A stretch of 64,000 nt of DNA from Patescibacteria group bacterium (GTDB taxonomy: Bacteria > Patescibacteriota > Minisyncoccia > RBG-13-40-8-A). The notes under the pieces are model-generated. The model had not been told where the DNA came from and did no database searches. It was given only the letters and a program-made list of their open reading frames with translations. The stretch is from the NCBI GenBank assembly GCA_018897295.1, contig JAHILA010000014.1, forward strand, positions 3,390 through 67,389, written 5' to 3'. The position numbers and the translations under genes are program-made. Shown here piece by piece: positions 2-64,000 of this stretch. Positions within the stretch are counted from its first letter, which is position 1. The number at the start of each line of letters is the position of its first letter.

Positions 2-1699
2 TTGATTGATCCAGCTGTTTTAAATAGCTTGGAGAAAGAAGCTGTGGAAACGAATAAGAATCTGGAAGAAATTATTTTAGGAAGAGAACTGATTAACGAA
101 ACAAAATTTTACGAACTTAAAAGTCAATTTTTAAAAGTTCCTTTTAAGGATTTGACTGATTATAAAGTTGAGCCAGAAATTTTTAAAATCGTTCCATTAG
201 AAACTGTCCAGCATTACCGCTTTGTTCCCATTAGTGTTGATACAAAGAAAAAAATATTAGAAGCAGGTATGCTTAATCCGGATAATATTGACGCTAAAGA
301 GGCATTAAAGTTCGTTGCCCACCGCAATAATTTAACGCCCAAAATTTTTATTATTACTCTCACCGATTTTAAGAATATCCTTAAAGAATATTCAAGTTTG
401 AAGGGCGAAGTTAAGGAAGCATTAGATGAGCTTAAAAAGGAAATAGAAGAAGAGAAAAAAAATGTTCCTGAAAAAACCGGAAAAGAAGAAATAGAAAAAA
501 TCGCTGAAGATGCGCCAATTACCAGAGTCGTGGCGCTGATTATTAAGCATGCAATTGAACAAAGGGCGTCAGATATCCATATTGAGCCAGAAGAAAAATC
601 AACCAGAGTCCGTTTTAGGGTAGATGGAGTCTTAAAGATTAACCTGATTTTGCCTTTGCGCATTCATCTAGCTATTATTTCAAGGATAAAAATTCTTTCC
701 AATCTAAAAATAGACGAAACCAGAAAACCGCAGGATGGAAGATTTTTTACCGAAACTATGGGGAAGAAAATTGATTTCCGTATTTCTACTCTGCCTACTT
801 ATGCTGGGGAAAAAGTGGTGATGAGAATCCTTGATCCTACAGTGGGATTGAAAAGCTTGGCGGATTTAGGCCTTGAGGACAGAAATTTGGAAATTATTAA
901 TAGGTCAATTAAGAAACCGAATGGATTAATTCTCGTAACTGGTCCGACTGGCTCCGGAAAAACAACCACTCTTTACAGTATTTTGCATCTTTTAAATCAG
1001 GAAGGAGTGAATATTATTAGTTTAGAAGATCCTATTGAATATTATATTGACGGTATAAGCCAGTCCCAGGTTAGGCCGGAAATCGGTTATACTTTTGCCA
1101 ATGGCCTCCGTTCTATTTTGCGCCAGGACCCCGATAAAATCATGGTCGGAGAAATTCGCGATGGTGAAACAGCAGCTCTGGCAGTCCATGCAGCCCTGAC
1201 AGGACATTTGGTTCTGGCGACTTTGCATACCAATGATGCTATGGGTGTGATTCCGCGCTTGATTGATATGGGAGTTGACCGCTACCTGATTCCGCCGACC
1301 CTGATTGTAGCCATAGCTCAAAGATTGGTTCAAAGATTATGCCCAGAAAGCAGGAAAGAAGTTAAGCCGTCAGCAGATATTATGGGATTGATAGATGAAG
1401 AACTCTCAGGCGTCAATGTAGAAACTTTAAAACGATTTAACATTAAAAAACCCTATACTCTTTACGAACCTCAGCTTTCCAAAGAATGTCCCAGGGGGAC
1501 GAAGGGTCGAGTTGGAGTTTTTGAGATAATAGAAATGACTAGCCAGCTGGAAGAAATTATTTTAAAAGACCCGTCTGAAACCAAGATTAGAGAAGAGGCA
1601 AAAAGACAAGGCATGACTACTATGCTTCAGGATGGAGTCATAAAAGCACTCAGAGGATTAGTTGGTTTAGAAGAAGTGAGAAGAGAGGTTGAGGATTAA
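2..1699 (+). CDS. pilB: Type IV pilus assembly ATPase, PilB/GspE family. The 5' end is cut by the window edge.
   Basis: Walker A GPTGSGKTTT and a Walker B/His-box region (LATLHTND). An N-terminal GspII_E_N-like region is present. It precedes the pilT and pilC genes. Confidence 0.9.
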   Translation: MIDPAVLNSLEKEAVETNKNLEEIILGRELINETKFYELKSQFLKVPFKDLTDYKVEPEIFKIVPLETVQHYRFVPISVDTKKKILEAGMLNPDNIDAKEALKFVAHRNNLTPKIFIITLTDFKNILKEYSSLKGEVKEALDELKKEIEEEKKNVPEKTGKEEIEKIAEDAPITRVVALIIKHAIEQRASDIHIEPEEKSTRVRFRVDGVLKINLILPLRIHLAIISRIKILSNLKIDETRKPQDGRFFTETMGKKIDFRISTLPTYAGEKVVMRILDPTVGLKSLADLGLEDRNLEIINRSIKKPNGLILVTGPTGSGKTTTLYSILHLLNQEGVNIISLEDPIEYYIDGISQSQVRPEIGYTFANGLRSILRQDPDKIMVGEIRDGETAALAVHAALTGHLVLATLHTNDAMGVIPRLIDMGVDRYLIPPTLIVAIAQRLVQRLCPESRKEVKPSADIMGLIDEELSGVNVETLKRFNIKKPYTLYEPQLSKECPRGTKGRVGVFEIIEMTSQLEEIILKDPSETKIREEAKRQGMTTMLQDGVIKALRGLVGLEEVRREVED

Positions 1700-1704
1700 A
1701 ATTT

Positions 1705-2775
1705 ATGAAAGATTACAAACCACAACTCGACGAATTGTTGCAGGCAGCAGGAAAACATAGTGCCTCGGATATTCATATTTCTGTAGGTAGGTATCCGACT
1801 TTGAGAATTGACGGCCGGCTAGTAGCTTTAGATAAATATCCTGTTTTGACTGGTGAAAATACAGAGGGGCTAATTTATACTTTACTTTCTGAACAACATA
1901 AGCAAACCCTGCTAGAGAAAAAAGAAGTTGATTTTTCCTATAATTATGAAGATAAGGCCCGTTTCAGAATAAATGCATATTTTCAAAGAGGGTATCTTTC
2001 AGCTGCCTTGCGATTTTTCCCGCCAGAAATAAGGACAATAAAACAATTAAATCTTCCTCCGATTTTAGAAACATTTGTTAAATTATCACAGGGATTATTT
2101 TTGGTGACCGGTCCTTCGGGGCATGGCAAAACCACAACTCTGGCTGCTTTGATTGATTTAATAAACCATACCCAGACAAAACATATTATTACCATTGAAG
2201 ATCCGATTGAATATATGCTTGAGCAAGATAAAAGCATCATTGACCAAAGAGAGGTAGGCAATGATACATTAAACTTTAAAAGAGCTTTGCGCGCTGCCTT
2301 AAGGCAGGATCCTGATGTGATAATGATAGGAGAAATGCGGGACCTGGAAACAATTTCAACAGCATTAACTGCGGCTGAAACTGGGCATTTGGTTTTGGCA
2401 ACTTTACATACTAACAGCGTTTCCCAAACCATTGACAGGATAATTGACAGTTTCCCGCCTAGGGCCGAGAAGCAAGTAAGAACCCAGCTGGCTTCTGTGC
2501 TTATAGGCGTTGCTTCCCAGCGTTTGATACCGAAGCCCGGCGGAGGAAGAATACCGGCAGTAGAGGTAATGATAGCCAATCCTGCAATTCGCAATTTAAT
2601 TCGTGAAGATAAAGTTTTCCAGATAGATTTAGTAATAGAAACCAGCGTCGAGGAAAAAATGATTTCTTTAAACAGATCTTTGGCAGATTTAGTTCACAAA
2701 GGAATGATTTCCATGGAAGACGCAGAAACATATTCTCTGAACCGGTCAGATTTAAAGATGTTGCTAGGAGCATAA
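1705..2775 (+). CDS. pilT: Twitching-motility (retraction) ATPase PilT
   Basis: 356 aa with Walker A GPSGHGKTTT and an ATLHTNS motif. The size and layout are typical of PilT/PilU and the gene sits directly downstream of pilB. Confidence 0.85.
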   Translation: MKDYKPQLDELLQAAGKHSASDIHISVGRYPTLRIDGRLVALDKYPVLTGENTEGLIYTLLSEQHKQTLLEKKEVDFSYNYEDKARFRINAYFQRGYLSAALRFFPPEIRTIKQLNLPPILETFVKLSQGLFLVTGPSGHGKTTTLAALIDLINHTQTKHIITIEDPIEYMLEQDKSIIDQREVGNDTLNFKRALRAALRQDPDVIMIGEMRDLETISTALTAAETGHLVLATLHTNSVSQTIDRIIDSFPPRAEKQVRTQLASVLIGVASQRLIPKPGGGRIPAVEVMIANPAIRNLIREDKVFQIDLVIETSVEEKMISLNRSLADLVHKGMISMEDAETYSLNRSDLKMLLGA

Positions 2776-2781
2776 TTTATT

Positions 2782-3990
2782 ATGAAATTTAATTATCAAG
2801 CCAGAACCAAGGAAGAGAAAACCCAAACTGGAATAATTGAAGCGGGAAGCAGGGAGTCAGCCATTGAAATTCTTCAGCGGCTTGATTTGGTTGTAATTTT
2901 TTTGGAGAAAACCTCTGCCATTCCTTTTTATGCCCGTACATTAAAAATTTTCCAAAAAGTAAAAGTAAAAGAACTGACACTTTTCTACCGCCAGTTGTCA
3001 ATTCTTTTTGAAGCAAATGTTTCACCACTAGATTCTCTGGGGATTCTGGCTAAACAAATTATCAATCCGCTTTTTAAAGAGGTGATATTGCAGGTGGAAG
3101 GTGATGTTAAGGGGGGAGAATCGCTGTCCCAGGCATTGGGAAAACATCCGAAAGTTTTTTTCTCTTTTTATGTGAATGTAGTGAAAGCTGGCGAAGCAAC
3201 AGGAAATCTGTCCGATGTTTTAAAATATCTGGCTGACCATGCTGAAAGGGAATACAATTTAACCAGTAAAGTAAAAGGAGCATTTACTTATCCCATAGCG
3301 ATATTTGCTATGTTTTTGGTGGTTGGGACTTTAATGATGATTTTCGTTGTCCCTCAGCTGACATCAATGATTCAGGAATTGGGGCAAGAGCTGCCTATGC
3401 CGACTAGGGTTTTAATTTTCGTGAGCAACATACTACGTTCTTGGCTTTGGCTTGTTGTTTTGATTATCATTGGTTTGGTTGTAGCAATAGGGAGGTTTGT
3501 AAGGACGCCAAATGGTCGTTTTATTCTTGATACTGCAAAATTAAAAATCCCGATTTTTGGCGAACTTTTTAAGAAAATATATTTGGCAAGATTTTCAGAA
3601 AATTTAAGAACTCTTTTAAAGGGAGGAATTTCCATATTAAAAGCATTAGAGATTACCGGAGCGGTTATCGGAAACAAAATTTACGAAAACATAATTAAAG
3701 AAGCCAGAGAAAAAGTGAGAATCGGAGAAACGATAAGTATTGCTTTATCAAATTATCCAAAAGAAATTCCTCCGATGGTTACGCAAATGGTTTCAGTGGG
3801 AGAAAAGACAGCTCAATTGGATATTATTTTGGATAAGGTTGCCAATTTTTACCAGCAGGATGTTGATAGGATGGTTAACAACATGACTCAGCTTATTGAA
3901 CCGATAATGATTTTAATTTTAGGCGGCGGCGTAGGATTTTTAATTACCTCAATTTTGATGCCCATTTATAACATGACATCGGGAATGTGA
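2782..3990 (+). CDS. pilC: Type IV pilus inner-membrane platform protein PilC/GspF
   Basis: 402 aa polytopic membrane protein with two GspF-like repeats. It lies in the pilB-pilT-pilC order. Confidence 0.85.
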   Translation: MKFNYQARTKEEKTQTGIIEAGSRESAIEILQRLDLVVIFLEKTSAIPFYARTLKIFQKVKVKELTLFYRQLSILFEANVSPLDSLGILAKQIINPLFKEVILQVEGDVKGGESLSQALGKHPKVFFSFYVNVVKAGEATGNLSDVLKYLADHAEREYNLTSKVKGAFTYPIAIFAMFLVVGTLMMIFVVPQLTSMIQELGQELPMPTRVLIFVSNILRSWLWLVVLIIIGLVVAIGRFVRTPNGRFILDTAKLKIPIFGELFKKIYLARFSENLRTLLKGGISILKALEITGAVIGNKIYENIIKEAREKVRIGETISIALSNYPKEIPPMVTQMVSVGEKTAQLDIILDKVANFYQQDVDRMVNNMTQLIEPIMILILGGGVGFLITSILMPIYNMTSGM

Positions 3991-3996
3991 TATAAT
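3988..3996 (+). promoter_or_regulatory. Extended -10 element (TGaTATAAT) in front of the major pilin gene. It overlaps the pilC stop codon.
   Basis: The sequence gTGaTATAAT was read directly about 55 nt upstream of the pilin ATG. Confidence 0.35.
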
Positions 3997-4048
3997 ATAA
4001 TTAAGAAGAAAAGGTCGATTAAAAACGATAAAGTAACAAATTACTTCT

Positions 4049-4504
4049 ATGAGAAAATCTAAAGGTTTTACCCTAATCGAACTTTTGGTTGTTATTGCTA
4101 TTATCGGTATTTTATCAACCATTGTTTTGGTATCATTGAATTCTGCTAGGCAGAAGGCCAGAGATACTCGTAGGCTTGGCGACATAAGACAAGTGGCATT
4201 GGCTTTGGAAATGTATTACGATGATAATGCTTCTTATCCTTCTGTAACCGGCTGTACAGCAGCCAATTGGACCGGGACCCTGGCAACAGCCATTCGGACG
4301 GGCGGTTATATGACTGCACTTCCAATTGATCCGCTGAATTCCGGCAACAATGTTTATATGTTCGGCAGCATTGGCACAAATTACGCATTAAAAGCAACAC
4401 TGGAAAATAATAATGTCGCCTTAAAAGCCGATGTTGACGGTACGGCCATATCCTGTACTTGCAATGATTCGATACCGCCATATTATTATTGCATCCAGCC
4501 ATAA
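4049..4504 (+). CDS. Type IV pilin, major pilin candidate. It has a class III prepilin signal (KGFTLIELLVVIAIIGIL).
   Basis: A short basic leader is followed by G|FTLIE with Glu at +5 and an N-terminal hydrophobic helix. The 151 aa product has C-terminal cysteines. Confidence 0.85.
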   Translation: MRKSKGFTLIELLVVIAIIGILSTIVLVSLNSARQKARDTRRLGDIRQVALALEMYYDDNASYPSVTGCTAANWTGTLATAIRTGGYMTALPIDPLNSGNNVYMFGSIGTNYALKATLENNNVALKADVDGTAISCTCNDSIPPYYYCIQP

Positions 4505-4512
4505 TTTATGTT

Positions 4513-4578
4513 TTAGCTTAACAAACACATTCTGGTTCGATGTTACATCGGACCAGAGAAGTTTGCTAAGCTAATTTT
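4513..4578 (+). terminator. Nested hairpin followed by a T-run between the pilin gene and pilD. It may act as an attenuator or partial terminator.
   Basis: The outer stem is TTAGCTTA with TAAGCTAA. The inner stem is CTGGT(t)CGATGT with ACATCGGACCAG. It is followed by TTTTGT. Confidence 0.4.
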
Positions 4579-4583
4579 GTAAA

Positions 4584-5348
4584 ATGGTATTATTTTATAT
4601 TTTGATTTTTGTTTTTGGGGCAATTATTGGCAGTTTTTTGAATGTTATTATTTGCAGATTGAATACAGGAGAATCAATTTTAAAAAATCGCTCCCATTGT
4701 CCTTTCTGCAATAAAAAATTGGTCTGGTACGAATTGATTCCAATCATAAGTTTTATTATTCAGTTGGGAAAATGCCAGAATTGCCACAAAAAAATTTCCT
4801 GGCAATATCCATTAGTGGAATTTTTTACAGGAATAATTTTTTTCTCAATACTTATTACTCAATATTCGTTACTTAATACTTTGTTCTTGCTTCTTATTTC
4901 ATGTTTTTTAATAATTATTTTTGTTTACGACTTTAAGCATTATCTGGTTGCTGATATAATCATCTATCCAGCTATCATTGTCGCCTTTTTATACCAGCTC
5001 CAATTTCCAATTTCCAATTTCCAATTTCCAATTTTCAATTATTTGTTAGCCGGACTAATAGCTGGGGGATTTTTTCTGGCAATTGTTCTGATTTCTAAGG
5101 GTAAATGGATGGGGGTAGGCGATGTTAAAATCGGGGTTTTAATGGGATTGATTTTCGGGATGCCATGGGTGTTTATTGCTTTATCTCTGGCATTTTTCAT
5201 TGGGGCCATTGTTTCTGTGGCATTATTGGCGCTTAAAAAGAAGACGCTTCAATCAGAGATTCCTTTTGGTCCATTTTTGGTTCTCGCTACTTTTGTCGTT
5301 ATTTTTTGGGGAGATATTTTATTAAATTGGTATTTGAATCTATTTTAA
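4584..5348 (+). CDS. pilD: Prepilin peptidase / N-methyltransferase PilD (peptidase A24)
   Basis: An N-terminal GSFLNV motif and a CPFC...CQNC tetracysteine zinc site are present. The protein is polytopic and located in the pilus operon. Confidence 0.8.
   Translation: MVLFYILIFVFGAIIGSFLNVIICRLNTGESILKNRSHCPFCNKKLVWYELIPIISFIIQLGKCQNCHKKISWQYPLVEFFTGIIFFSILITQYSLLNTLFLLLISCFLIIIFVYDFKHYLVADIIIYPAIIVAFLYQLQFPISNFQFPIFNYLLAGLIAGGFFLAIVLISKGKWMGVGDVKIGVLMGLIFGMPWVFIALSLAFFIGAIVSVALLALKKKTLQSEIPFGPFLVLATFVVIFWGDILLNWYLNLF
5001..5035 (+). repeat. Heptanucleotide tandem repeat inside pilD: (CAATTTC)x3 followed by two degenerate units.
   Basis: Read directly as caatttc caatttc caatttc caatttt caattat. 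It encodes QFPISNFQFPIFNY. Confidence 0.7.
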
Positions 5349-5351
5349 TTT

Positions 5352-5909
5352 ATGAAAAGATTTAAAGGCTATGCCTACCGGCAGGCAGGATTTACGCTTA
5401 TTGAGGTATTGGTAATAATGTTTATTATTTCCACGCTTTCCACTGTGCTTGTGGTTAATTGGCGTAAGAATGAAAAGCGTTATCAGCTTCAGCGTTCAGC
5501 CCAGACAGTTGTTCAAAACTTCAGAAAAGTTCAAAGTATGTCTTTGGCAGGCAAGAATTTGTGTGATCAGGACTCTCCTTGCATCCCTCGGAATTATGGA
5601 GTTCATTTTGGGAAAACCACTTTAACCTCTTATGTCATTTTTGCCGATAAAAATAACAATGGTAAATATGCCAGCGCAGTGGAGACCAATGAACATATAG
5701 AAACAATCTATCTTGAGTCCGGCATAGAACTTTCGTTATCTGTGGACTTAGATGTTGTTTTCTCGGTTCCGGACGGATTCGTTATGATTAATGCGAAACC
5801 GCTGACTACTGAAGCATCTCTGACTATTAAGCGAAGCGGAACAACTTGCCCTTCTTCTAACTGTAAGATCATAATAATAAAGAAAAGTGGCCAAATAACA
5901 ATACAATGA
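5352..5909 (+). CDS. Minor pilin / pseudopilin (GspH/FimT-like)
   Basis: The prepilin N-terminus reads AGFTLIEVLV. The leader is unusually long (MKRFKGYAYRQAG). Confidence 0.7.
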   Translation: MKRFKGYAYRQAGFTLIEVLVIMFIISTLSTVLVVNWRKNEKRYQLQRSAQTVVQNFRKVQSMSLAGKNLCDQDSPCIPRNYGVHFGKTTLTSYVIFADKNNNGKYASAVETNEHIETIYLESGIELSLSVDLDVVFSVPDGFVMINAKPLTTEASLTIKRSGTTCPSSNCKIIIIKKSGQITIQ

Positions 5910-6415
5910 GAAAAATCATATTTGCCAATAAACGAGGTTTTACATTAATGGAAGTGATTGTTGCTGTGGCAATAATTATTACTGCATTGATTTCCTCGTT
6001 AGCATTAATCACTAGCAGTATTTCGAGCATCAGAGAAAATAAGTCAAAAATTATCGCAACAGGCCTTGCCCAAGAGGGCTTGGAAGTTGTTAGAAATATC
6101 AGAGACAATAATTGGCTTATTTATAAAAGAAAAGCTAATGACTGGAGAGACGGATTGTCAGCAGGAAATTATCGGGTTCAATTTGATCAAGAGAGTTTGC
6201 TTTCATTTAGTTCGGTGCCTTTAAAAATAAATACCACAGATGGACGTTATCAGTATTCCAATGGGAATAATACTATTTATTACAGAAAAATAATAATTCA
6301 GGATATAGACGTTGACCAATTTAAAGTAGTCGCTGAAATCAGTTGGCGAGAGGCGGGAAGAGATAATTTAATCAGCGCCGAAACCAGATTTTATAATTGG
6401 TTAAAAGAAGAGTGA
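5906..6415 (+). CDS. Minor pilin (PilV/GspI-like)
   Basis: The N-terminus reads RGFTLMEVIVAVAII. The gene is translationally coupled to its neighbours. Confidence 0.7.
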   Translation: MRKIIFANKRGFTLMEVIVAVAIIITALISSLALITSSISSIRENKSKIIATGLAQEGLEVVRNIRDNNWLIYKRKANDWRDGLSAGNYRVQFDQESLLSFSSVPLKINTTDGRYQYSNGNNTIYYRKIIIQDIDVDQFKVVAEISWREAGRDNLISAETRFYNWLKEE

Positions 6416-6416
6416 T

Positions 6417-6914
6417 ATGAAAAAGGCCATGCCTGCCGGCAGGCAGGGTTTTACATTAATAGAGCTTCTTGTTTCGATGTCCATATTCATAATAGTGATT
6501 ATGGTAGTTTTGGGTTTGTTTTCTGCAGCTATAAAAGCGCAGAGAAAAGCATTTGCTATGCAAGACGCCCAAGAAAATGCTAGATTTTTAATGGAATTTA
6601 TGGCTAAAGAAGTAAGGATGAGTGTAATTACTAGTAGTAATGGAACTTCACCCAATTTGACGCTTACGCGCTCTGACGGCGATAGTGTTACTTATAGTAT
6701 CAGTAGTAATAAAATTTACAGAAATAGTATTCAGGTAAGTTCTGATGAAGTTTATATTTCCGGAACTTTTTACACAGAAGGAGTTGGTTCTGAAGACGGC
6801 TTACAGCCAAAACTGACAATTGCGTTGAAGATTAAGACAACAGGCACTAAAGTCGAGGAAAGGGCCGAGATTAATATCCAAACTACTCTTTGCCAGAGAA
6901 ATCTTGATTTATGA
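6417..6914 (+). CDS. Minor pilin (PilW/GspJ-like)
   Basis: The N-terminus reads QGFTLIELLVSMSIF. The leader is long (MKKAMPAGRQ). Confidence 0.7.
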   Translation: MKKAMPAGRQGFTLIELLVSMSIFIIVIMVVLGLFSAAIKAQRKAFAMQDAQENARFLMEFMAKEVRMSVITSSNGTSPNLTLTRSDGDSVTYSISSNKIYRNSIQVSSDEVYISGTFYTEGVGSEDGLQPKLTIALKIKTTGTKVEERAEINIQTTLCQRNLDL

Positions 6915-7258
6915 AAAAATTAAAAAATAATAAAAAAGGGGCATCACTTCTTCTTGCGCTGTTGATTATATCAGCGGTTTTAAGTATTGCTTTCGGCATT
7001 TCGGAATTAAGTTTAGGAGAAATAAAGATTTCCCGCGATGCGCCTAAATCATTAATTGCTTATTATGCTGCTGATGCCGGAATTGAATGCCAAATGTTTG
7101 CCGACAGATTAAGCAAACCTAATTGTTCAAGCGCCTGCATAGATGTTAATTCTAAAATTTGTTATAAAATAACTATTTCTGGTGTTAGCCCAAAGAGAAC
7201 AATCAAATCTTCTGGCATATATCAGGATATAATAAGAGCTATCGAATTAACATATTGA
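6911..7258 (+). CDS. PilX-like minor pilin / pilus assembly protein
   Basis: A hydrophobic N-terminus and an AYYAADAGIE motif resemble the PilX_N signature. Confidence 0.55.
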   Translation: MKKLKNNKKGASLLLALLIISAVLSIAFGISELSLGEIKISRDAPKSLIAYYAADAGIECQMFADRLSKPNCSSACIDVNSKICYKITISGVSPKRTIKSSGIYQDIIRAIELTY

Positions 7259-19968: not shown

Positions 19969-21027
19969 ATGGATATTAAGAAAAAAATACTTTTTTTGGT
20001 GACTCAATCCGAGTTTGGCGGAGCCCAGCGCTTTATTTATAATTTGGTAACCAATTTAAATCAGGATAAATATAGTATTGCAGTCGCAGCAGGATTAGAA
20101 GGTGATAATGAAAACGGACTTTTATTTGCTTTAGAGAAAAAAGGGATTGATACAGGACATTTAAGATATCTTAGACGGTCAATTAATCCTTTTTTTGATT
20201 TCTTGGGCGTTATTGAGATTTTAAAATTGATAAAAAAAGAAAAGCCGGATATCTTATTTTTATGCAGTTCCAAAGCAGGATTTTTAGGGAGTTGGGCAGG
20301 AAAAAACAAAATAAAAAAAGTAATTTACAGAATCGGTGGATGGACTTTTAATGACCCTTGGCCAAAATGGAAAAAGAAATTGTATATTTGGATAGAGAAA
20401 ATAAGCGCTGGATGGAAAGATTACATTATCAATAATGCTGAATCAGACAAACAGCAGGCAATAAAAATAGGTATTAAGCCACAAAGGGGAATCTTAACCA
20501 TTTACAATGGAATTGATGCAGATAAACTGAAATTTTTGAATAAAGGAGAAGCAGGAAATTTCCTGCGATTAAATAATTCGGATTTCGTTGTTGGAACTAT
20601 TGCCAATGATTACCCGACTAAGGGATTAAAATACCTAAGAGAAGTCGAAGGAAAATTACAGGATATTAAGCTTGTAATATTGAGCAATATTCCTGACGCG
20701 TATAAATATTTAAAGGCATTTGACATCTTTGTTCTGTCGTCTGTAAAAGAAGGGTTTCCTTGGGTAATTTTAGAAGCAATGTCTGCCGGAGTGCCAATTA
20801 TTGCTACAAAAGTTGGAGCAATACCGGAAATTATCCAAAACAATGAAAATGGCATCTTGATAGAGCCAAAAAGCCCGAAAGCAATTATTGATGCAGTAAA
20901 GTTGTTAATGGATAATAAAGATTTAATGAGGAAATTAGCAATTAATGGCAGAAAAACAGTTATAGAAAAATTTAATCTGGAAAAAATGATTAATAGATAT
21001 GTAGAATTATTCGAATCTACGAATTGA
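19969..21027 (+). CDS. Glycosyltransferase family 4 (GT-B, retaining)
   Basis: The C-terminal EGFPWVILEAMSAGVPIIATKVGAIPEI motif fits the EX7E signature region. Start is set at ATG 19969, just after the upstream stop. The track ORF 19834 is an in-frame upstream extension that overlaps the previous gene. Confidence 0.8.
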   Translation: MDIKKKILFLVTQSEFGGAQRFIYNLVTNLNQDKYSIAVAAGLEGDNENGLLFALEKKGIDTGHLRYLRRSINPFFDFLGVIEILKLIKKEKPDILFLCSSKAGFLGSWAGKNKIKKVIYRIGGWTFNDPWPKWKKKLYIWIEKISAGWKDYIINNAESDKQQAIKIGIKPQRGILTIYNGIDADKLKFLNKGEAGNFLRLNNSDFVVGTIANDYPTKGLKYLREVEGKLQDIKLVILSNIPDAYKYLKAFDIFVLSSVKEGFPWVILEAMSAGVPIIATKVGAIPEIIQNNENGILIEPKSPKAIIDAVKLLMDNKDLMRKLAINGRKTVIEKFNLEKMINRYVELFESTN

Positions 21028-21094
21028 TATGCGAATCTACAAATAATTCGTTGATTCGGATAAATATTCGTATCATTCGGATAATATATTTATG
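21011..21094 (+). repeat. Copy A of a recurrent intergenic cis-element of about 85 bp; forward orientation
   Basis: CGAATCTAC direct repeats with about 20-bp spacing and ATTCGGATA direct repeats with 21-bp spacing. Near-identical copies occur at 21945-22036 (inverted), 26586-26673, 27074-27120 and 28838-28884. Confidence 0.85.
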
Positions 21095-21895: not shown

Positions 21896-21944
21896 CAGGT
21901 TTTTTTATGCTATAATTAAAAGGTAATAAATAATAATATATTAT

Positions 21945-22036
21945 CCGAATGATACGAATATGTATCCGAATCAACGAATTATTTGTAGATTCGCATATCA
22001 ATTTGTAGATTCGAATAATAAATTCATAAATTTATG
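21945..22036 (-). repeat. Copy B of the recurrent cis-element, reverse complement of copy A. Copies A and B form an inverted repeat of about 80 bp flanking the CE4 gene.
   Basis: The reverse complement matches copy A with about 2 mismatches over about 78 bp. It ends at the ATG of the 22034 gene. Confidence 0.85.
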
Positions 22037-26578: not shown

Positions 26579-26585
26579 AATTTTA

Positions 26586-26673
26586 TTATCCGAATCTACA
26601 AATTAATATGCGAATCTACAAATAATTCGTTGATTCGGATACATATTCGTATCATTCGAATAATATATTTATG
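26586..26673 (+). repeat. Copy C of the recurrent cis-element (forward), in a divergent promoter region
   Basis: It is near-identical to copy A and lies between the divergent DegT (-) and GxxExxY (+) genes. Confidence 0.85.
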
Positions 26674-28325: not shown

Positions 28326-28862
28326 ATGAAAAAAGTTATTCCATTTTTAGCAATAGCTTTTGTGGTCATCGGAGCAGCGCTGAGATTTGCTCCGCATTTT
28401 CCGAATTTTGCGCCAATTGCGGCAATGGCATTATTCGGCGGAGTTTATCTTAATAAAAAATATGCCTTGATCGTTCCGATAGTTGCGATATTTGTCAGTG
28501 ATTTGTTTATTGGTTTTTACGATGCCAAATTAATGGCAGGGGTATACTTAAGTTTTATTTTGGTTGGTTTAATCGGATTATTTATTAAGAAACATAAAAA
28601 TATAGGCACAATAATCGGCGGAACTGTTTTAGGTTCTGTTTTGTTTTTTCTGATTACCAATTTTGCTGTTTGGGCGTTCTATTCGTGGTATCCGCACACT
28701 TTAAATGGCTTAAGTCAGTGTTTTACAATGGCATTGCCATTTTTCAGAGGTACGTTAATTGGTGATTTGTTCTATGTCGCAATTCTATTTGGAGTTTATG
28801 AAGTGGTTATAGCTTCGGTTAGAAAAAAACATTTATTAGTAGATTCGAATATTAATTTGTAG
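28326..28862 (+). CDS. Integral membrane protein with 5-6 TM helices; possibly a small-substrate transporter component
   Basis: It is polytopic and hydrophobic with a FAPHFPNFAPIAAMALFGG N-terminus. Its function is not recognised. Confidence 0.3.
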   Translation: MKKVIPFLAIAFVVIGAALRFAPHFPNFAPIAAMALFGGVYLNKKYALIVPIVAIFVSDLFIGFYDAKLMAGVYLSFILVGLIGLFIKKHKNIGTIIGGTVLGSVLFFLITNFAVWAFYSWYPHTLNGLSQCFTMALPFFRGTLIGDLFYVAILFGVYEVVIASVRKKHLLVDSNINL

Positions 28863-28884
28863 ATTCGAATAATATATTTATATG
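28838..28884 (-). repeat. Copy E of the recurrent cis-element (left module inverted, fused to the conserved AATAATATATTTAT end)
   Basis: gtagattcgaatattaatttgtagattcgaataatatatttat lies upstream of the 28882 ATG. Confidence 0.75.
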
Positions 28885-29940
28885 AAAATCGTAATTGCAT
28901 CAGGAATATACCCGCCGGATATTGGCGGACCAGCAACATACTCGCAAACTACTGCGCGGGAATTTACTAAACAAGGAATTAATGTCTCTTTGATTTGTTA
29001 TTCGGATAAAAAACAAGAAGATAATGAAAATTTTAAAATTGTCAGAATTTTAAGAAAAAATAAATTATTCAGATATTTATTGTATTTTTGGAACCTTTTG
29101 AAATTAGCCAGAAATTGCGATGTAATTTATGCCCAAGGTCCATTAGCAGCTGGTTTGCCAACAATGTGGGTGAGTAAAATTTTGAGAAAGAAATTTGTGA
29201 TTAAAGTTGTTGGTGATTATGCCTGGGAACAAGGGGTAAATCAATTTGGCGTTAAAGAATTAATTGAAGAATTCCAAAATAAAAAATATAATTCCAGAAT
29301 TGAAAGAATAAGAAGAATTCAGAAAAAAGTTTGTAAAAGCGCGGACAAAATTATTGTCCCGAGCGAGTTTTTAAAGAAAATAGTAAAAGGCTGGGGGATT
29401 AATGAGAATAAAATTAAGGTTATTTATAATGCTTTTTCGGGAATTGAAAATTGGAAATCGGAAATTGAAAATTTGAATTTAGATGGCGATATAATTATTT
29501 CAGCTGGTAGGCCAGAGCCATGGAAAGGATTTGATACTCTAGATGAGATAATGTCGGATTTGCTAAAAGAAAATCCGAAATTCAAATTGGTTATAGCGAC
29601 TAAATTATCTCATAATGAACTAATGGCGTATTTTAAGACAAGTATGATTTTCGTACTGAATTCCGGGTATGAAGGATTTTCGCATATCCTTTTGGAAGCA
29701 ATGGCTTGCGAATTGCCTGTGATTACAACCAATGTTTGTGGGAATCCCGAAATCGTCAGAAACAGTTATAATGGATTATTGGTTGAGTATAATAATAAAG
29801 AGCAAATAAAAAATGCTATTTTAAGATTATGGAAAGATGAAAATTTGCGAAGAAAATTTATTGAGAACGGAAAAAAGACATTAGAGAAATTTAAATTAGA
29901 AATAATACTGGAAGAAACATTAAACGTTTTAAGACCATGA
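28882..29940 (+). CDS. Glycosyltransferase family 4
   Basis: A YEGFSHILLEAMACELPVITTNVCGNPEIV motif is present. Confidence 0.8.
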   Translation: MKIVIASGIYPPDIGGPATYSQTTAREFTKQGINVSLICYSDKKQEDNENFKIVRILRKNKLFRYLLYFWNLLKLARNCDVIYAQGPLAAGLPTMWVSKILRKKFVIKVVGDYAWEQGVNQFGVKELIEEFQNKKYNSRIERIRRIQKKVCKSADKIIVPSEFLKKIVKGWGINENKIKVIYNAFSGIENWKSEIENLNLDGDIIISAGRPEPWKGFDTLDEIMSDLLKENPKFKLVIATKLSHNELMAYFKTSMIFVLNSGYEGFSHILLEAMACELPVITTNVCGNPEIVRNSYNGLLVEYNNKEQIKNAILRLWKDENLRRKFIENGKKTLEKFKLEIILEETLNVLRP

Positions 29941-31374: not shown

Positions 31375-32535
31375 ATGAAACTTTTAATCATTTCAGGCGA
31401 TACAGCCTTGGCTCAGGGCAAAAAAGGGCCATTTTATTATGTGTTGGAAGAATTGTCTAAATATTGGGAGAGGATTGATATTATCTGTCCCCGCCTTCGC
31501 CAACCTGCCTCGCCGGCAGGCGGGTGCTTCGGCGGGCAAGCAAAACCATGTGTTCAAAAATTTTTTAATAACGTATATGTGCATAGTTCTAATTTGCCTT
31601 TAATCCTTCAGCCGTGGTTTATTTTTAAAAAAGGAGCAGAGATTTATAAAGAGCAGAAATTTGATTTGTTCACAATTCATAGCTATCCTCCTTTTTATAA
31701 TGATATTGGCGGATTGTGGCTTTACAATAAAATAAAAACCCCTTACTTTTTAGAAGTAATGCATATCACTGGTTATCCCAAAGCAGGGAATTTTAAGGAG
31801 TGGTTTTATAAAATTTTAACTAAATATTTTATAAATTTTTTTTCAAAGAGAGCTAAAGCAATTAGAGTGATTAATCAGATACAAACACCAGAATTTTTGA
31901 AAAAAGCAGGGGTTGATGAGAAAAAGATAAAAATTGCACCGGCATTTTATATCGATTTTGAAGTATTTAAACCCAATGCCGCAGAAAAAAAATATGACTT
32001 GGTTTTTTCCGGTCGATTAGCGAAGAATAAAGGTATATTTTTATTACTGAAAGCAGTGAGAAGTCTCAAATCACAGATTCCAAACATCAAGCTTGTAATT
32101 ATTGGAAGTGGGCCGTTGGAGAAAAGGATCAAGAAATATATTATAAAGAATAAATTAGAAAATAATGTGGAATTTGTCGGTTGGTTGCCGACCATAAATG
32201 ATTTGGCGAGAATTTATAATCAATCAAAAATTTTAGTTATGCCGTCATTTAACGAAGGTGGACCGAGAGTAACCTTAGAAGCAATGGCTTGTAAAGTGCC
32301 GGTTATTACAAGCAGAGTCGGGGTGATGCTGGATATAATTAAGCATGGTGAAAATGGAATATTTATCAAATGGAATGCCGAGGATATTGCTGAGAAGATA
32401 ATTTTATTATTAAAGGACGACAATCTAAGGCAGAAGATAGCTGAAAACGGCTGCCAAACAATCCAACGATTTGAAAGAAAAAAAGTAATTGAAAATTATG
32501 CAAAAATATATCAAGCTTTGCTACGTTCTGCCTGA
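31375..32535 (+). CDS. Glycosyltransferase family 4 carrying an in-frame GC-rich element insertion
   Basis: A NEGGPRVTLEAMACKVPVITSRVGVMLDI motif is present. Start is set at ATG 31375 immediately after the upstream stop; the track 31354 start overlaps the upstream gene. Confidence 0.75.
   Translation: MKLLIISGDTALAQGKKGPFYYVLEELSKYWERIDIICPRLRQPASPAGGCFGGQAKPCVQKFFNNVYVHSSNLPLILQPWFIFKKGAEIYKEQKFDLFTIHSYPPFYNDIGGLWLYNKIKTPYFLEVMHITGYPKAGNFKEWFYKILTKYFINFFSKRAKAIRVINQIQTPEFLKKAGVDEKKIKIAPAFYIDFEVFKPNAAEKKYDLVFSGRLAKNKGIFLLLKAVRSLKSQIPNIKLVIIGSGPLEKRIKKYIIKNKLENNVEFVGWLPTINDLARIYNQSKILVMPSFNEGGPRVTLEAMACKVPVITSRVGVMLDIIKHGENGIFIKWNAEDIAEKIILLLKDDNLRQKIAENGCQTIQRFERKKVIENYAKIYQALLRSA
31489..31548 (+). 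repeat. GC-rich palindromic element of about 57 bp, in-frame within the GT4 gene. It is translated as [20 protein letters not shown].
   Basis: ccccgccttcgccaacctgcctcgccggcaggcgggtgcttcggcgggcaagc is about 93 % identical to 62401-62457. Confidence 0.85.
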
Positions 32536-33610
32536 TTATAATTCCAAAACAGACAGCCATTTTTTCCATCTGTATGAATTTTTGGAAAAGGCGTCTAAAA
32601 AACTGGACATATTTTTAATCGTAGAAAGAAGTAGTAGCAACAAAGAAGATATCGGGAGTGTTATGCCGGATATAAAATTTATTTATATCCAAAAATTTAA
32701 GTTTATCCCTTTTCGCTTTATTGAGAGTTTTATTGCTGTTTTAATCGCCAGAATTAAAGGATATAAAAACTTTTATACCCATTATTGTTATATCGGCGGA
32801 ACCAACGCCGCAATTATATCCAGGGTTTTCGGCGGGAAGTCGTATTATTGGAATTGTGCCATGAATTGGTTGTTTAAGAAAAAAGATTCTTCAAAAATAG
32901 GATATGAATTGTGCTTGAAATGGTCTCATTATCTGGTAACCGGCAGCGCGGGGATGAAGAAAGGATATATTGAACATTATCATCTGAGTCCGGAAAGAGT
33001 TAAAGTAATGCCTAATTGGATAAACCTGGAAAGATTTAAACCGGGAAACTTCCAGCCCAAGGCTGGTCCGCCTCGGGCGGAAAAGACTTTATTATTTATT
33101 CATTGGCTTTCAAAAAGGAAGGGCGCGGATATGATTGTGCCGATAGCAAAACATTTATCCCAAATACTAAATACAAAATACAAAATATTGGTTGCAGGCA
33201 ATGGTCCGTATGGAGATGATTTATTGAAAGAAATAGAGGAAAACAAATTAAAAAAAATTATCGAAGTTTTGGGAGCCATTCCTAATGAAAATATAATTAA
33301 GTATTACGAAAAGACGGATATATTTATCATGCCGTCTATGGAAGAAGGATTTCCGAGAGTGTTGTTGGAAGCAATGGCAATGGGCGTTCCTTATATTGCT
33401 TCCGATATCGGAGCAGTCAGGGAAATTTCTTCGGAAATCGCTCAAAGATTTCTAGTCAGGTCAGGAGACGCCGAAATGTTTGCCCATAAAATAGAAAACT
33501 TAATATCGGACGAAAGGGTATACGAAGATTTCAGAAAAGAAGAATTGCAAAAAATCAAGGAATATTCAATAGATAAAGTGATTGATATATTTGTAAAATT
33601 ATTTAAATGA
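32489..33610 (+). CDS. Glycosyltransferase family 4
   Basis: An EEGFPRVLLEAMAMGVPYIASDIGAVREI motif is present. The start is either 32489 or 32498, and the gene overlaps the upstream gene. Confidence 0.75.
   Translation: MKIMQKYIKLCYVLPDYNSKTDSHFFHLYEFLEKASKKLDIFLIVERSSSNKEDIGSVMPDIKFIYIQKFKFIPFRFIESFIAVLIARIKGYKNFYTHYCYIGGTNAAIISRVFGGKSYYWNCAMNWLFKKKDSSKIGYELCLKWSHYLVTGSAGMKKGYIEHYHLSPERVKVMPNWINLERFKPGNFQPKAGPPRAEKTLLFIHWLSKRKGADMIVPIAKHLSQILNTKYKILVAGNGPYGDDLLKEIEENKLKKIIEVLGAIPNENIIKYYEKTDIFIMPSMEEGFPRVLLEAMAMGVPYIASDIGAVREISSEIAQRFLVRSGDAEMFAHKIENLISDERVYEDFRKEELQKIKEYSIDKVIDIFVKLFK
33051..33081 (+). repeat. Possible degenerate GC-rich element copy in the GT4 gene
   Basis: cccaaggctggtccgcctcgggcgg compares with ccaacctgcctcgccggcaggcggg. 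Confidence 0.3.
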
Positions 33611-61900: not shown

Positions 61901-64000
61901 ATGTTGGAAAAATTATTCGGGGATCCGAATAAAAGATATTTGAATAAAGTCCAGCCGATTGTGGAGAAAATAAATGAGCTCGAAAAAGAATTCGAGCGTT
62001 TTTCTAACGAGGATTTAAAAAATAAAACTAAAGAATTTAGAAAAAAAATAGAAAACTACGGAGGACAGACCTCCGTAGTGCTTGATGATATTTTGCCGGA
62101 AGCATTTGCTGCTGTGCGGGAGGCATCGAAAAGAACTTTAAATCAAAGACATTTTGACGTACAGCTTGCCGGAGGCATTGTTCTGCACCAGGGGAAAATT
62201 GCAGAAATGAGAACCGGAGAAGGAAAAACATTAACCGCAACCCTATCATTGTATTTGAATGCATTAGAGGGAAAAGGCGCGCATCTGGTTACAGTTAACG
62301 ATTATTTAGCCAGAAGAGATGCTGTTTGGATGGGGCAAATATATAATTTTCTTGGATTTAGCGTGGGATGTATAAATCATGAAACTTCTTATATTTATGA
62401 CCCCGCCTACGCCAACCTGCCTCGCCGGCAGGCGGGGGCTTCGGCGGGCAAGCCAGAACTAAAATTAGACAAAGAACGTGATGAGGCGGGTGGGTTCAAA
62501 GTGGTGCAGGAATTTTTGAAACCGTGCAGTAGAAAAGAAGCTTATAGCGCTGATATTTTGTATGGCACTAATAATGAATTTGGGTTTGATTTTTTGCGGG
62601 ATAATATGGCTTATGATAAAAACGAGATGGCGCAAAGAGCTTCTAATTACGCAATTATTGATGAAGTAGACAGTATTCTAATAGATGAAGCCAGAACTCC
62701 TTTAATTATTTCTGCGCCAGATGTGGAATCAGCCCAGCTTTACAAGAAATTTTCCAAAATCGCTCCGCAATTAAAAAAGGACATTGATTTTAAAATTGAT
62801 GAAAAAATGCGCGCGGCAACCTTAACTAATGCAGGCATGGATAAAGTGGAAAAAACCTTGGGAGTCGGGAATATTTATGATGAAGCCGGAATTCAATTAG
62901 TGCATCATTTGGAACAGGCCTTGCGCGCGGAAGTCCTATTTAGAAGAGATAAGGATTATGTGGTGCGCAATGGGGAAGTGATTATTGTTGATGAATTCAC
63001 TGGTAGGTTGATGCCTGGTAGGCGCTATTCCGGCGGGTTGCATCAGGCATTAGAGGCAAAAGAAAATGTGCAAGTACAGAAGGAATCGAAAACTTTGGCA
63101 ACAATTACTTTCCAGAATCTTTTCAGAATGTATAAAAAATTAGCCGGAATGACAGGAACTGCATTAACTAATGCTGAAGAGTTCGACAAGGTTTACAAAT
63201 TGGACACCATAGTTGTGCCGACTAATAAGCCGATGATTAGGAAAGATTTGCCAGATAAGATTTACAAGACCGAGCAAGGGAAATTTAAAGCAATTGTTCA
63301 GGAAATAAAAGAACGCTATGAAAAAGGTCAGCCAGTTTTGGTGGGCACGATTTCAATTGAAAAAAATGAGCATTTGGGAATGCTCTTAAAAAAAGAGGGA
63401 ATACAATGCGAGATTTTAAATGCCAAACAGCACGAAAGGGAAGGCGCGATTATTGCCCAGGCAGGAAGATTAGGAGCTGTGACAGTTGCAACCAATATGG
63501 CAGGTCGTGGAGTTGATATTGTTTTGGGGGGCAACCCTCAAGATCCTGAGCAGGGTCGAAGGGTTTGTGACGTTGGCGGACTTCATGTCCTTGGCACCGA
63601 GCGCCATGAAGCAAGAAGAATTGATAATCAATTAAGAGGAAGGTCTGGCAGGCAGGGAGATCCTGGCTCTACTGAATTTTTTGTTTCATTGGAAGACGAA
63701 TTAATGCAGAGATTCGGTTCTGAGAAGATTAAGACCCTGATGGATGCTTTGAAAATTCCCGAGGACCAGCCAATTGAAAATAAGATGATTTCATCGGCGA
63801 TTGAAAAAGCCCAGGCAAAGATTGAAGGATATAATTTTGATATCAGGCATCATGTTTTGGAATATGACGAGGTGATGAATAAGCACAGGGAAACGATTTA
63901 TAAAATGAGAAAAGAAATTTTATTCCAAGCAACAGATAAAGAGATGCATCAGAAAGTTAAGGAATTAATGACAGAGGACAAGTATAAGCAATATTGTAAT
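61901..64000 (+). CDS. secA: Preprotein translocase ATPase SecA. The 3' end is cut by the window edge. It carries an in-frame GC-rich element insertion.
   Basis: The N-terminus reads [14 protein letters not shown]. Walker A is [13 protein letters not shown] and the DEAD-like motif is [20 protein letters not shown]. The frame stays open to the window end. Confidence 0.9.
62401..62457 (+). repeat. GC-rich palindromic element of about 57 bp, in-frame within secA. It is translated as [18 protein letters not shown].
   Basis: ccccgcctacgccaacctgcctcgccggcaggcgggggcttcggcgggcaagc is about 93 % identical to 31489-31548 but is read in a different codon phase. Confidence 0.85.

Follow-up and report, generated by a model that had tools for sequence, protein, structure and literature searches.

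A translated heptanucleotide repeat in the prepilin peptidase gene of a Patescibacteria group bacterium, a candidate on/off mutation point for pilus biogenesis

The window analysed here is the whole 64,000-nucleotide stretch of a Patescibacteria group bacterium (GenBank assembly GCA_018897295.1, contig JAHILA010000014.1, positions 3,390 to 67,389, forward strand). It begins with a type IV pilus operon that contains pilD, the gene for a prepilin peptidase of the A24 family, and a tandem repeat of 7-nucleotide units lies within pilD, between the codons for both catalytic aspartates (Table 1). The product was 100% identical to NCBI’s “prepilin peptidase [Patescibacteria group bacterium]” and matched PF06750 (2.3e-32) and PF01478 (3.7e-12), both beyond the curated cut-offs, giving an A24 N-terminal domain and a Peptidase_A24 domain. 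D116, G179, and D180 were invariant among 34 aligned homologues, and PilD thus has the two catalytic aspartates of A24 peptidases, the second one in a GxGDxK motif. Substrates with a class III signal (G/FTLIE) are encoded nearby, the N_methyl motif being present in four neighbouring genes. In the leader-coding regions of two pseudopilin genes, GC palindromes were seen at 5371-5389 and 6431-6447 (GCCTACCGGCAGGCAGG; GCCTGCCGGCAGGCAGG), encoding YAYRQAG/FTLIE and MPAGRQG/FTLIE.

Table 1. Features of the pilus operon, of pilD, and of its repeat tract (positions in the window)
Feature	Position	Strand	Basis
Type IV pilus operon around pilD	2..7258	+	Pfam; called genes of identical locus L001
T2SSE ATPase genes (two)	2-1699, 1705-2775	+	Pfam
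pilC (T2SSF)	2782-3990	+	Pfam
Pilin gene	4049-4504	+	Pfam
pilD, A24 prepilin peptidase gene, 254 aa	4584..5348	+	ORF, Pfam, NCBI match
Decayed period-7/14 tract, TM2-TM3 outer turn (loop 1, aa 87-100)	4844..4881	+	TRF
Catalytic Asp116 codon (YDFK), 5' of tract	4929..4931	+	Invariant in 34-sequence alignment
Codons 139-153 (LQFPISNFQFPIFNY), predicted TM4 end, uncharged outer turn, TM5 start	4998..5042	+	AlphaFold model, charge reading
Five perfect CCAATTT units	5000..5034	+	Sequence, TRF, run-length test
Degenerate sixth unit TCAATTA	5035..5041	+	Sequence, TRF
TAG stop met after loss of one or gain of two units	5047..5049	+	In-silico variants
TAA stop met after gain of one or loss of two units	5096..5098	+	In-silico variants
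Catalytic Asp180 codon (GVGDVK), 3' of tract	5121..5123	+	Invariant; missing from every out-of-frame variant
Pilin-like genes with N_methyl motif (three)	5352-5909, 5906-6415, 6417-6914	+	Pfam
Small ORF, no family match	6911-7258	+	Pfam

Read directly from the sequence, the tract is (CCAATTT)x5, all units perfect, and measures 42 bp with the degenerate sixth unit included; in the other register, CAATTTC is perfect four times at 5001-5028 and is followed by CAATTTT and CAATTAT. The original prediction had described a (CAATTTC)n repeat of three perfect and two degenerate units, which gave the place, the unit, and the peptide correctly and under-counted the units. TRF reported the tract at 4999-5040 (period 7, 6.0 copies, 97% matches) with a score of 77, the highest among 74 TRF rows for the whole window. 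The longest run in which each base equalled the base 7 positions on was 29 bases and lay at this tract, against a mean of 8.7 and a maximum of 14 for period 7 in first-order Markov simulations of the window (n=200), and the longest self-match runs at other periods in the window were just 8-12 bases. A 14-mer pattern of the tract (≤2 mismatches) gave 11 matches, compared with 3.9 ± 1.9 in shuffled sequence, where 0 of 100 shuffles reached 11. By TRF score, pattern search, and Markov run lengths, the tract is therefore far beyond chance. Weaker period-7 tracts were also seen in the window at 29437-29477, in ORF 28882..29940 (unit AATTGGA/AATTGAA, the reverse complement of the pilD unit; 5.1 copies, 79%; also readable as two copies of 21 bp), and at 33162-33187, in ORF 32489..33610 (AAATACA, 3.7 copies).

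The translated tract amounts to about two copies of QFPISNF, and the peptide QFPISNFQFP named by the original prediction is contained in the encoded LQFPISNFQFPIFNY. The AlphaFold model of PilD (mean pLDDT, 84.7) has helices at 124-144 and 149-171 with a four-residue turn in between, and block 141-150 has the lowest pLDDT of any 10-residue block in the model (64). The tract-encoded segment is without charged residues, whereas the aspartate-bearing loops of PilD are rich in Lys and Arg. From the positive-inside rule, and from the established A24 topology, in which the active-site aspartates face the cytoplasm, the tract is thus predicted to code the extracytoplasmic turn between TM4 and TM5. 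On this model, the turn that the tract encodes is an outer one, uncharged and structurally permissive. The decayed tract in loop 1 reads CTCAATA CTTATTA CTCAATA TTCGTTA CTTAATA (TRF period 14, 2.7 copies, 75% matches), and orthologs have perfect heptamer arrays at the loop 1 position, which is a second heptamer hot spot.

Consequences of unit changes were computed by in-silico translation. Loss of one or gain of two units gave products of 152 and 159 aa, and gain of one or loss of two units gave products of 173 and 166 aa; D180 was missing from every one of them. Gain or loss of three units kept the frame (261 or 247 aa). Since 7 is not a multiple of 3, only three-unit changes preserve the pilD frame, and the original claim that a changed unit number would frameshift the peptidase is borne out by computation, with every variant of one or two units ending before the second catalytic aspartate. 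The tract therefore shares with simple sequence repeat (SSR) contingency loci an in-ORF run of identical tandem units whose length is not a multiple of 3 and, as computed and not measured, a unit change that yields a null product and a further change that restores the frame.

Unit number was compared among the window and three sequences of the same species (L001, L002, and L003; DNA from GCA_022012975.1, GCA_018895295.1, and an ENA contig) and two assemblies of a sister species (L004 and L005). No unit-number difference was found among the four same-species assemblies, which are consensus sequences and blind to minority variants: all three fetched sequences had the identical 42-bp tract length, and GCA_022012975.1 was identical to the window across the aligned pilD stretch. 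The tract of the sister species (PilD 86% identical at the amino acid level) was also 42 bp, so that the polymorphism that the original prediction had proposed to look for among strains was absent from the six assemblies compared, all of which had the same count. The 90% protein cluster of PilD had three members of 254 aa each. An exact look-up against ~15 billion proteins gave no match for any of the six variant proteins predicted (-3 to +3 units), a search with the N-terminal 146 aa of PilD found no truncated close relative (≥90% identity), and an alignment-based scan of genome contigs returned mostly distant phyla, with the own species not among the matches listed and the best listed match 59% identical. 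Single substitutions within the tract, C5022G (Q147E) and C5007T (P to S), were seen in L002 and L003; each breaks the run, and tract perfection is therefore not strictly kept.

The constant count across six assemblies and the interrupting substitutions in two strains both favour an account to which we give a substantial minority of our confidence, namely that the tract is a tolerated by-product of a general bias toward 7-nucleotide slippage. Arrays would then persist only where the protein tolerates insertions, in in-frame lengths, and frameshifts would be merely deleterious or steps to gene loss. Against it stands the way in which the tract has changed between the two species. The sister species has (CAATTTT)x4 where the window has (CAATTTC)x4, with the same base changed in each unit, and a tract of the same length with an identical change in all units is concerted evolution; homogenisation outpaces divergence. 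L109 and L111 keep the terminal units CAATTTT and CAATTAT, which in L004 read TAATTTT and TAATTAT.

Relatives had tracts of other lengths. P0007, P0012, and P0020 read LYQLQFSIFNY at this position, exactly 7 aa (three units) shorter, with an in-frame tract of ~21 bp; L109 and L111 had in-frame tracts of 60 bp, and L107 (78% identical) was without the tract. The original prediction had named, as what would speak against it, orthologs that conserve the peptide without a DNA repeat; DNA repeats are present in orthologs. Length differences within four large 90% clusters (263/249, 261/241/271, and 265/245/280 aa) had been considered as 6-unit indels and were merely alternative start-codon calls. 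In the DNA set first fetched, every array-bearing pilD was in frame with respect to its array and the sole frameshifted gene was that of L098.

The N-terminal search also returned truncated PilDs of other CPR species, ending in the TM4-TM5 loop. Four such loci were fetched, and in each the reading frame shifts from 0 to -1 within loop 2; intact (ON) partners of the broken alleles were identified by BLAST against already fetched proteins. In L112 (P0222, 154 aa), the frame breaks inside TAATTTT CAATTTT CAATTAT, and addition of one 7-nucleotide unit gave a 247-aa protein 98% identical overall to the natural intact P0218, with which it shares the loop ALIFNFQFSIFNYSIFSAF; the differences were a 4-aa indel and one substitution near the N terminus. 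L114 (P0174, 158 aa) with one unit added had the exact loop of the natural intact P0171 and P0175, and all nearby residues but one matched P0200. The deficit is 7 nucleotides in both, because a 1-nucleotide repair would leave the loop two residues shorter than in the natural proteins. ON and OFF alleles exactly 7 nucleotides apart (L112 versus P0218; L114 versus P0171 and P0175) therefore occur in relatives, as in SSR contingency loci, and the OFF alleles stand at assembly-consensus frequency in two independent species with the rest of the operon intact, which argues against a mere by-product. Judged from these assembled alleles, the one-unit pairs in two other CPR species show slipped-strand on/off mutation at the orthologous tract for the family. 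Five repaired proteins of L112-L114 had no match in an exact look-up.

The other two broken genes are of a different kind and count for the by-product account. Compared with their intact partners, L115 has a 25-nucleotide deletion in the TM4-TM5 loop (partner, P0244) and L113 a 61-nucleotide deletion there (partner, P0243), the latter comparison ruling out an 8-nucleotide duplication in L113. Such deletions are irreversible and look like gene loss, not switching. The pilD gene of L098 is frameshifted at a T8 run, 3' of loop 2 and away from the heptamers, and was rejected as evidence of unit slippage. The orthologous site in the window is a G5-A-T6 run (GGGGGATTTTTT) at 5064-5075, encoding GGFF right after the tract; the run in L098 (about 6510-6545) has T8 and the frameshift, and P0216 and P0233 are frameshifted just past the same run, making this site a second frameshift hot spot in CPR pilD, of homopolymer type.

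That the same -1 frame break falls at the same place in two species would also be expected of a programmed ribosomal frameshift or recoding site, from which out-of-frame alleles such as L112 and L114 would still be expressed. We regard this as the least credible of the explanations considered, and hardly credible at all: the pilD of the window is a single intact frame, natural in-frame alleles are known for both broken genes, no slippery heptamer of the form X XXY YYZ occurs among the 0-frame codons CAA TTT CCA ATT TCC AAT TTC, and no downstream structure accompanies the tract, which folds no better than its shuffles (z = 0.96).

Near-identical PilDs were also found to differ in whole turns. 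In P0009 versus P0010, and in P0174/L114 versus P0242 and P0171, the TM2-TM3 or TM4-TM5 turn is wholly different and the flanks are identical, as if loops were swapped like cassettes between strains. A 29-nucleotide GC-rich double hairpin, CCGCCCGAGGCGGACCAGCCTTGGGCTGG, occurs with 0 mismatches both in the window (33052-33080, minus strand), in frame inside the glycosyltransferase-like ORF 32489..33610 (peptide PGNFQPKAGPPRAEK), and in L110 (10458-10486), from another species, where it is inserted in PilD loop 2 and flanked by CAATTTT units; L109, L111, and L098 have related hairpins in their PilD loops. The 29-mer calls Rickettsia palindromic elements to mind and has the look of a small palindromic element able to enter coding DNA without breaking the frame. 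Another GC-rich palindromic element, ccccgcctWcgccaaCCTGCCTCGCCGGCAGGcggg.gcttcggcgggcaagc, has two copies in the window, at 31504-31520 and 62416-62432, ~31 kb apart in AT-rich surroundings. A further repeat family of ~40-90 bp, rich in ATTCGNAT / TAGATTCG, was seen at 21000-21090, 21938-22020, 26583-26666, and 28831-28871, directly 5' of three start codons (ATG at 21092, 26671, and 28882), and one copy, inverted, precedes 22034; these repeats may be shared operator or promoter elements.

Period-7 arrays were not confined to this gene. Across ~1.19 Mb of non-redundant fetched loci, TRF arrays (≥3 copies, score ≥40) numbered 99 at period 7, compared with 17 at period 9, 12 at period 8, 10 at period 14, 7 at period 12, 4 at period 6, and 1 at period 5; perfect arrays (≥3 copies) numbered 24 at period 7 and 3, 1, 3, and 2 at periods 5, 6, 8, and 9. 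The metagenome loci had been fished partly by a repeat-derived peptide pattern, and genome-contig loci fished without that pattern still had 12 perfect period-7 arrays. The period is thus exactly 7, in excess over other periods, as in the heptanucleotide class of long SSRs. Inside pilD lay 28 of the 99 arrays; TRF on the fetched pilD ORFs put the period-7 hot spots at the TM2-TM3 turn (aa ~88-112) and the TM4-TM5 turn (aa ~139-190). A protein-level lag-7 signal was tried and was too blunt (18.3% in the loop 1 region versus 8-13%, but 10.5% in the whole loop 2 region). A further 19 lay in other ORFs, several of them near the N terminus, and 36 lay outside long ORFs.

Prepilin leader-coding regions, just upstream of G/FTLIE, held 16 of the 99 (e.g., KLKIENWKLKINKG/FTMIE and TSYKLQATHSSRG/FTLVEM), and all 16 were in frame. 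Leader arrays were seen in L074 (6892-6917 and 7534-7559), L077 (8170-8258), L093 (800-830 and 2609-2639), L094 (4826-4859), L101 (5613-5646), L102 (8090-8122), L106 (8047-8077), L109 (3491-3524), L019, and L043. Paralogous pilin genes within one locus have the same leader array; the pilin genes of the window are without heptamer leader arrays. In L101, L102, and L106, the arrays are followed by AKQAG/FT leaders, which are similar to the pseudopilin leaders of the window.

That arrays in relatives sit close to the starts of pilin genes would suit a sequence-specific DNA or RNA signal, such as a heptad operator, a protein-binding RNA, or an internal promoter from which the downstream pseudopilin genes are transcribed. 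Operators built of 7-bp heptads do exist in other systems, as for the omega repressor of pSM19035. We nevertheless hold such a signal to be very improbable. The units at the same two PilD loops are many and unrelated between lineages (TTTCGGA, TTCAAAT, TTAGGAA, TTCTATT, AGTTATC, CATAATT, TGGTATC, and others), which disfavours a sequence-specific binding signal and leaves the period, not the sequence, as the property that the arrays share. No promoter-like site, terminator, or Rfam match was found in the tract, nor any folding beyond shuffles.

The wider survey bears on the by-product account in both directions. Arrays lie also in intergenic DNA and in non-pilus ORFs (glycosyltransferase genes of the window; a 664-695 aa ORF in L101 and L102), every prepilin leader array is in frame, and an excess of heptamers is a known general feature of bacterial SSRs: heptanucleotides are described, in passages of PMC4679880 and PMC4692102 that both cite Mrazek 2007, as outnumbering all other classes of long SSR in many bacteria and are attributed to polymerase slippage. 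On the other side, many CPR lineages have arrays at the same two PilD loops, built from unrelated units, and published coding-region repeats most often have multiple-of-three units (PMC4679880), yet units of 7 dominate inside genes here. It is therefore the translation of heptamer arrays that is unusual, and their presence in membrane-protein turns and prepilin leaders challenges the multiple-of-three expectation for in-gene repeats.

The mechanism of the pilD tract is that of SSR contingency loci, and three sets of known repeats resemble it in different ways. Closest by unit length (7 nucleotides) is the (ATCTTTC)n tract of Haemophilus influenzae hmw1A/hmw2A, in which slipped-strand mispairing changes the unit number and the expression of a surface adhesion structure; located between two promoters, it grades transcription, and the constructs described had 13-24 units (PMC8262952). 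The pilD tract, by comparison, is a coding tract of 5-6 units in the gene for an enzyme, where its effect would come from a translational frameshift. In mode of action, the nearest parallels are coding-region tracts of Neisseria, CTCTT in the leader-coding region of opa and poly-G in pilC. Shared with these are a unit that is not a multiple of 3, a position in an ORF where the peptide matters little, and translational ON/OFF control of a surface or pilus function. Phase variation of Opa has been described (PMC3745409), and N-terminal enrichment of coding-region contingency tracts has been discussed (PMC3315296). The Neisseria tracts differ in unit length, in their pathogen context, in high measured rates, and in the many OFF genes per genome, whereas the pilD tract targets a prepilin peptidase in an environmental CPR bacterium.

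A 7-nucleotide period in strong excess over neighbouring periods, as here, is found in cyanobacterial STRR, in GGGAATC-type repeats of Xanthomonas and Nostoc, and in TAACTGA repeats of Beggiatoaceae. The tract length of heptameric long SSRs varies among close relatives, and polymerase slippage is the proposed origin (PMC4692102, PMC4679880); an STRR can sit inside a functional gene, rnpB, according to a passage of PMC2858038 citing Vioque 1997. Repeats of the STRR type are mostly intergenic, with one or few unit sequences per genome, whereas the CPR arrays described here are protein-coding, translated, and diverse even within one locus (e.g., L008), and have an obvious consequence for the reading frame.

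Taken with its relatives, the pilD tract is, in our judgement, rather likely to be a slipped-strand on/off mutation point for pilus biogenesis. Replication slippage would make this heptanucleotide SSR and keep it homogeneous; gain or loss of one or two units would bring translation to the stop at 5047 or 5096, with loss of the catalytic Asp180; prepilins would then go unprocessed and pilus assembly would halt, until a later slippage event brought the frame back. The genome studied here would be in the ON state. For this species, on/off slippage is inferred, and it may occur at a useful rate, be reversible, and be beneficial. The switching rate may be low, since five units are few next to classical contingency tracts. 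The phase-variation switch of the original prediction is thus upheld in its marks of slippage (concerted evolution, three-unit alleles, and 7-nucleotide ON/OFF pairs in relatives), and the constant count in this species counts against it. The constant count, the two interrupting substitutions, the short tract, and the deletion alleles in relatives weigh against a fast, classical contingency locus. Even as an on/off mutation point, the tract is more probably a hazard that the cell tolerates than an evolved, adaptive contingency locus.

In cultured CPR bacteria, type IV pili are linked to host-cell attachment and thought to serve DNA uptake. No paper found in a literature search connected CPR or Patescibacteria with phase variation through SSRs or with pilus-gene heptamer repeats; a paper on “hypervariation” in Gracilibacteria is unrelated and concerns 9-mer PTD repeats. 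Only tentatively, and as an idea that we think on the whole unlikely, we suggest that CPR/Patescibacteria may have evolved lineage-wide heptanucleotide contingency tracts in type IV pilus genes that switch pilus production stochastically. Such tracts would lie where the peptide matters least, namely in both outer turns of PilD and in the cleaved prepilin leaders, and the PilD loops would also take up in-frame GC-rich palindromic inserts and would themselves be swapped in the manner of cassettes between near-identical strains. Pilus production is thought to underlie attachment to hosts, uptake of DNA, and exposure to phages specific for pili, and no earlier phase-variation system would be on record for CPR bacteria. 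Regulators are few in CPR bacteria, most of which are uncultured; for such cells, an on/off point in the single prepilin peptidase gene, heritable and stochastic, would be a way to vary pilus display, and mixed populations of piliated and non-piliated cells would be predicted in metagenomes.
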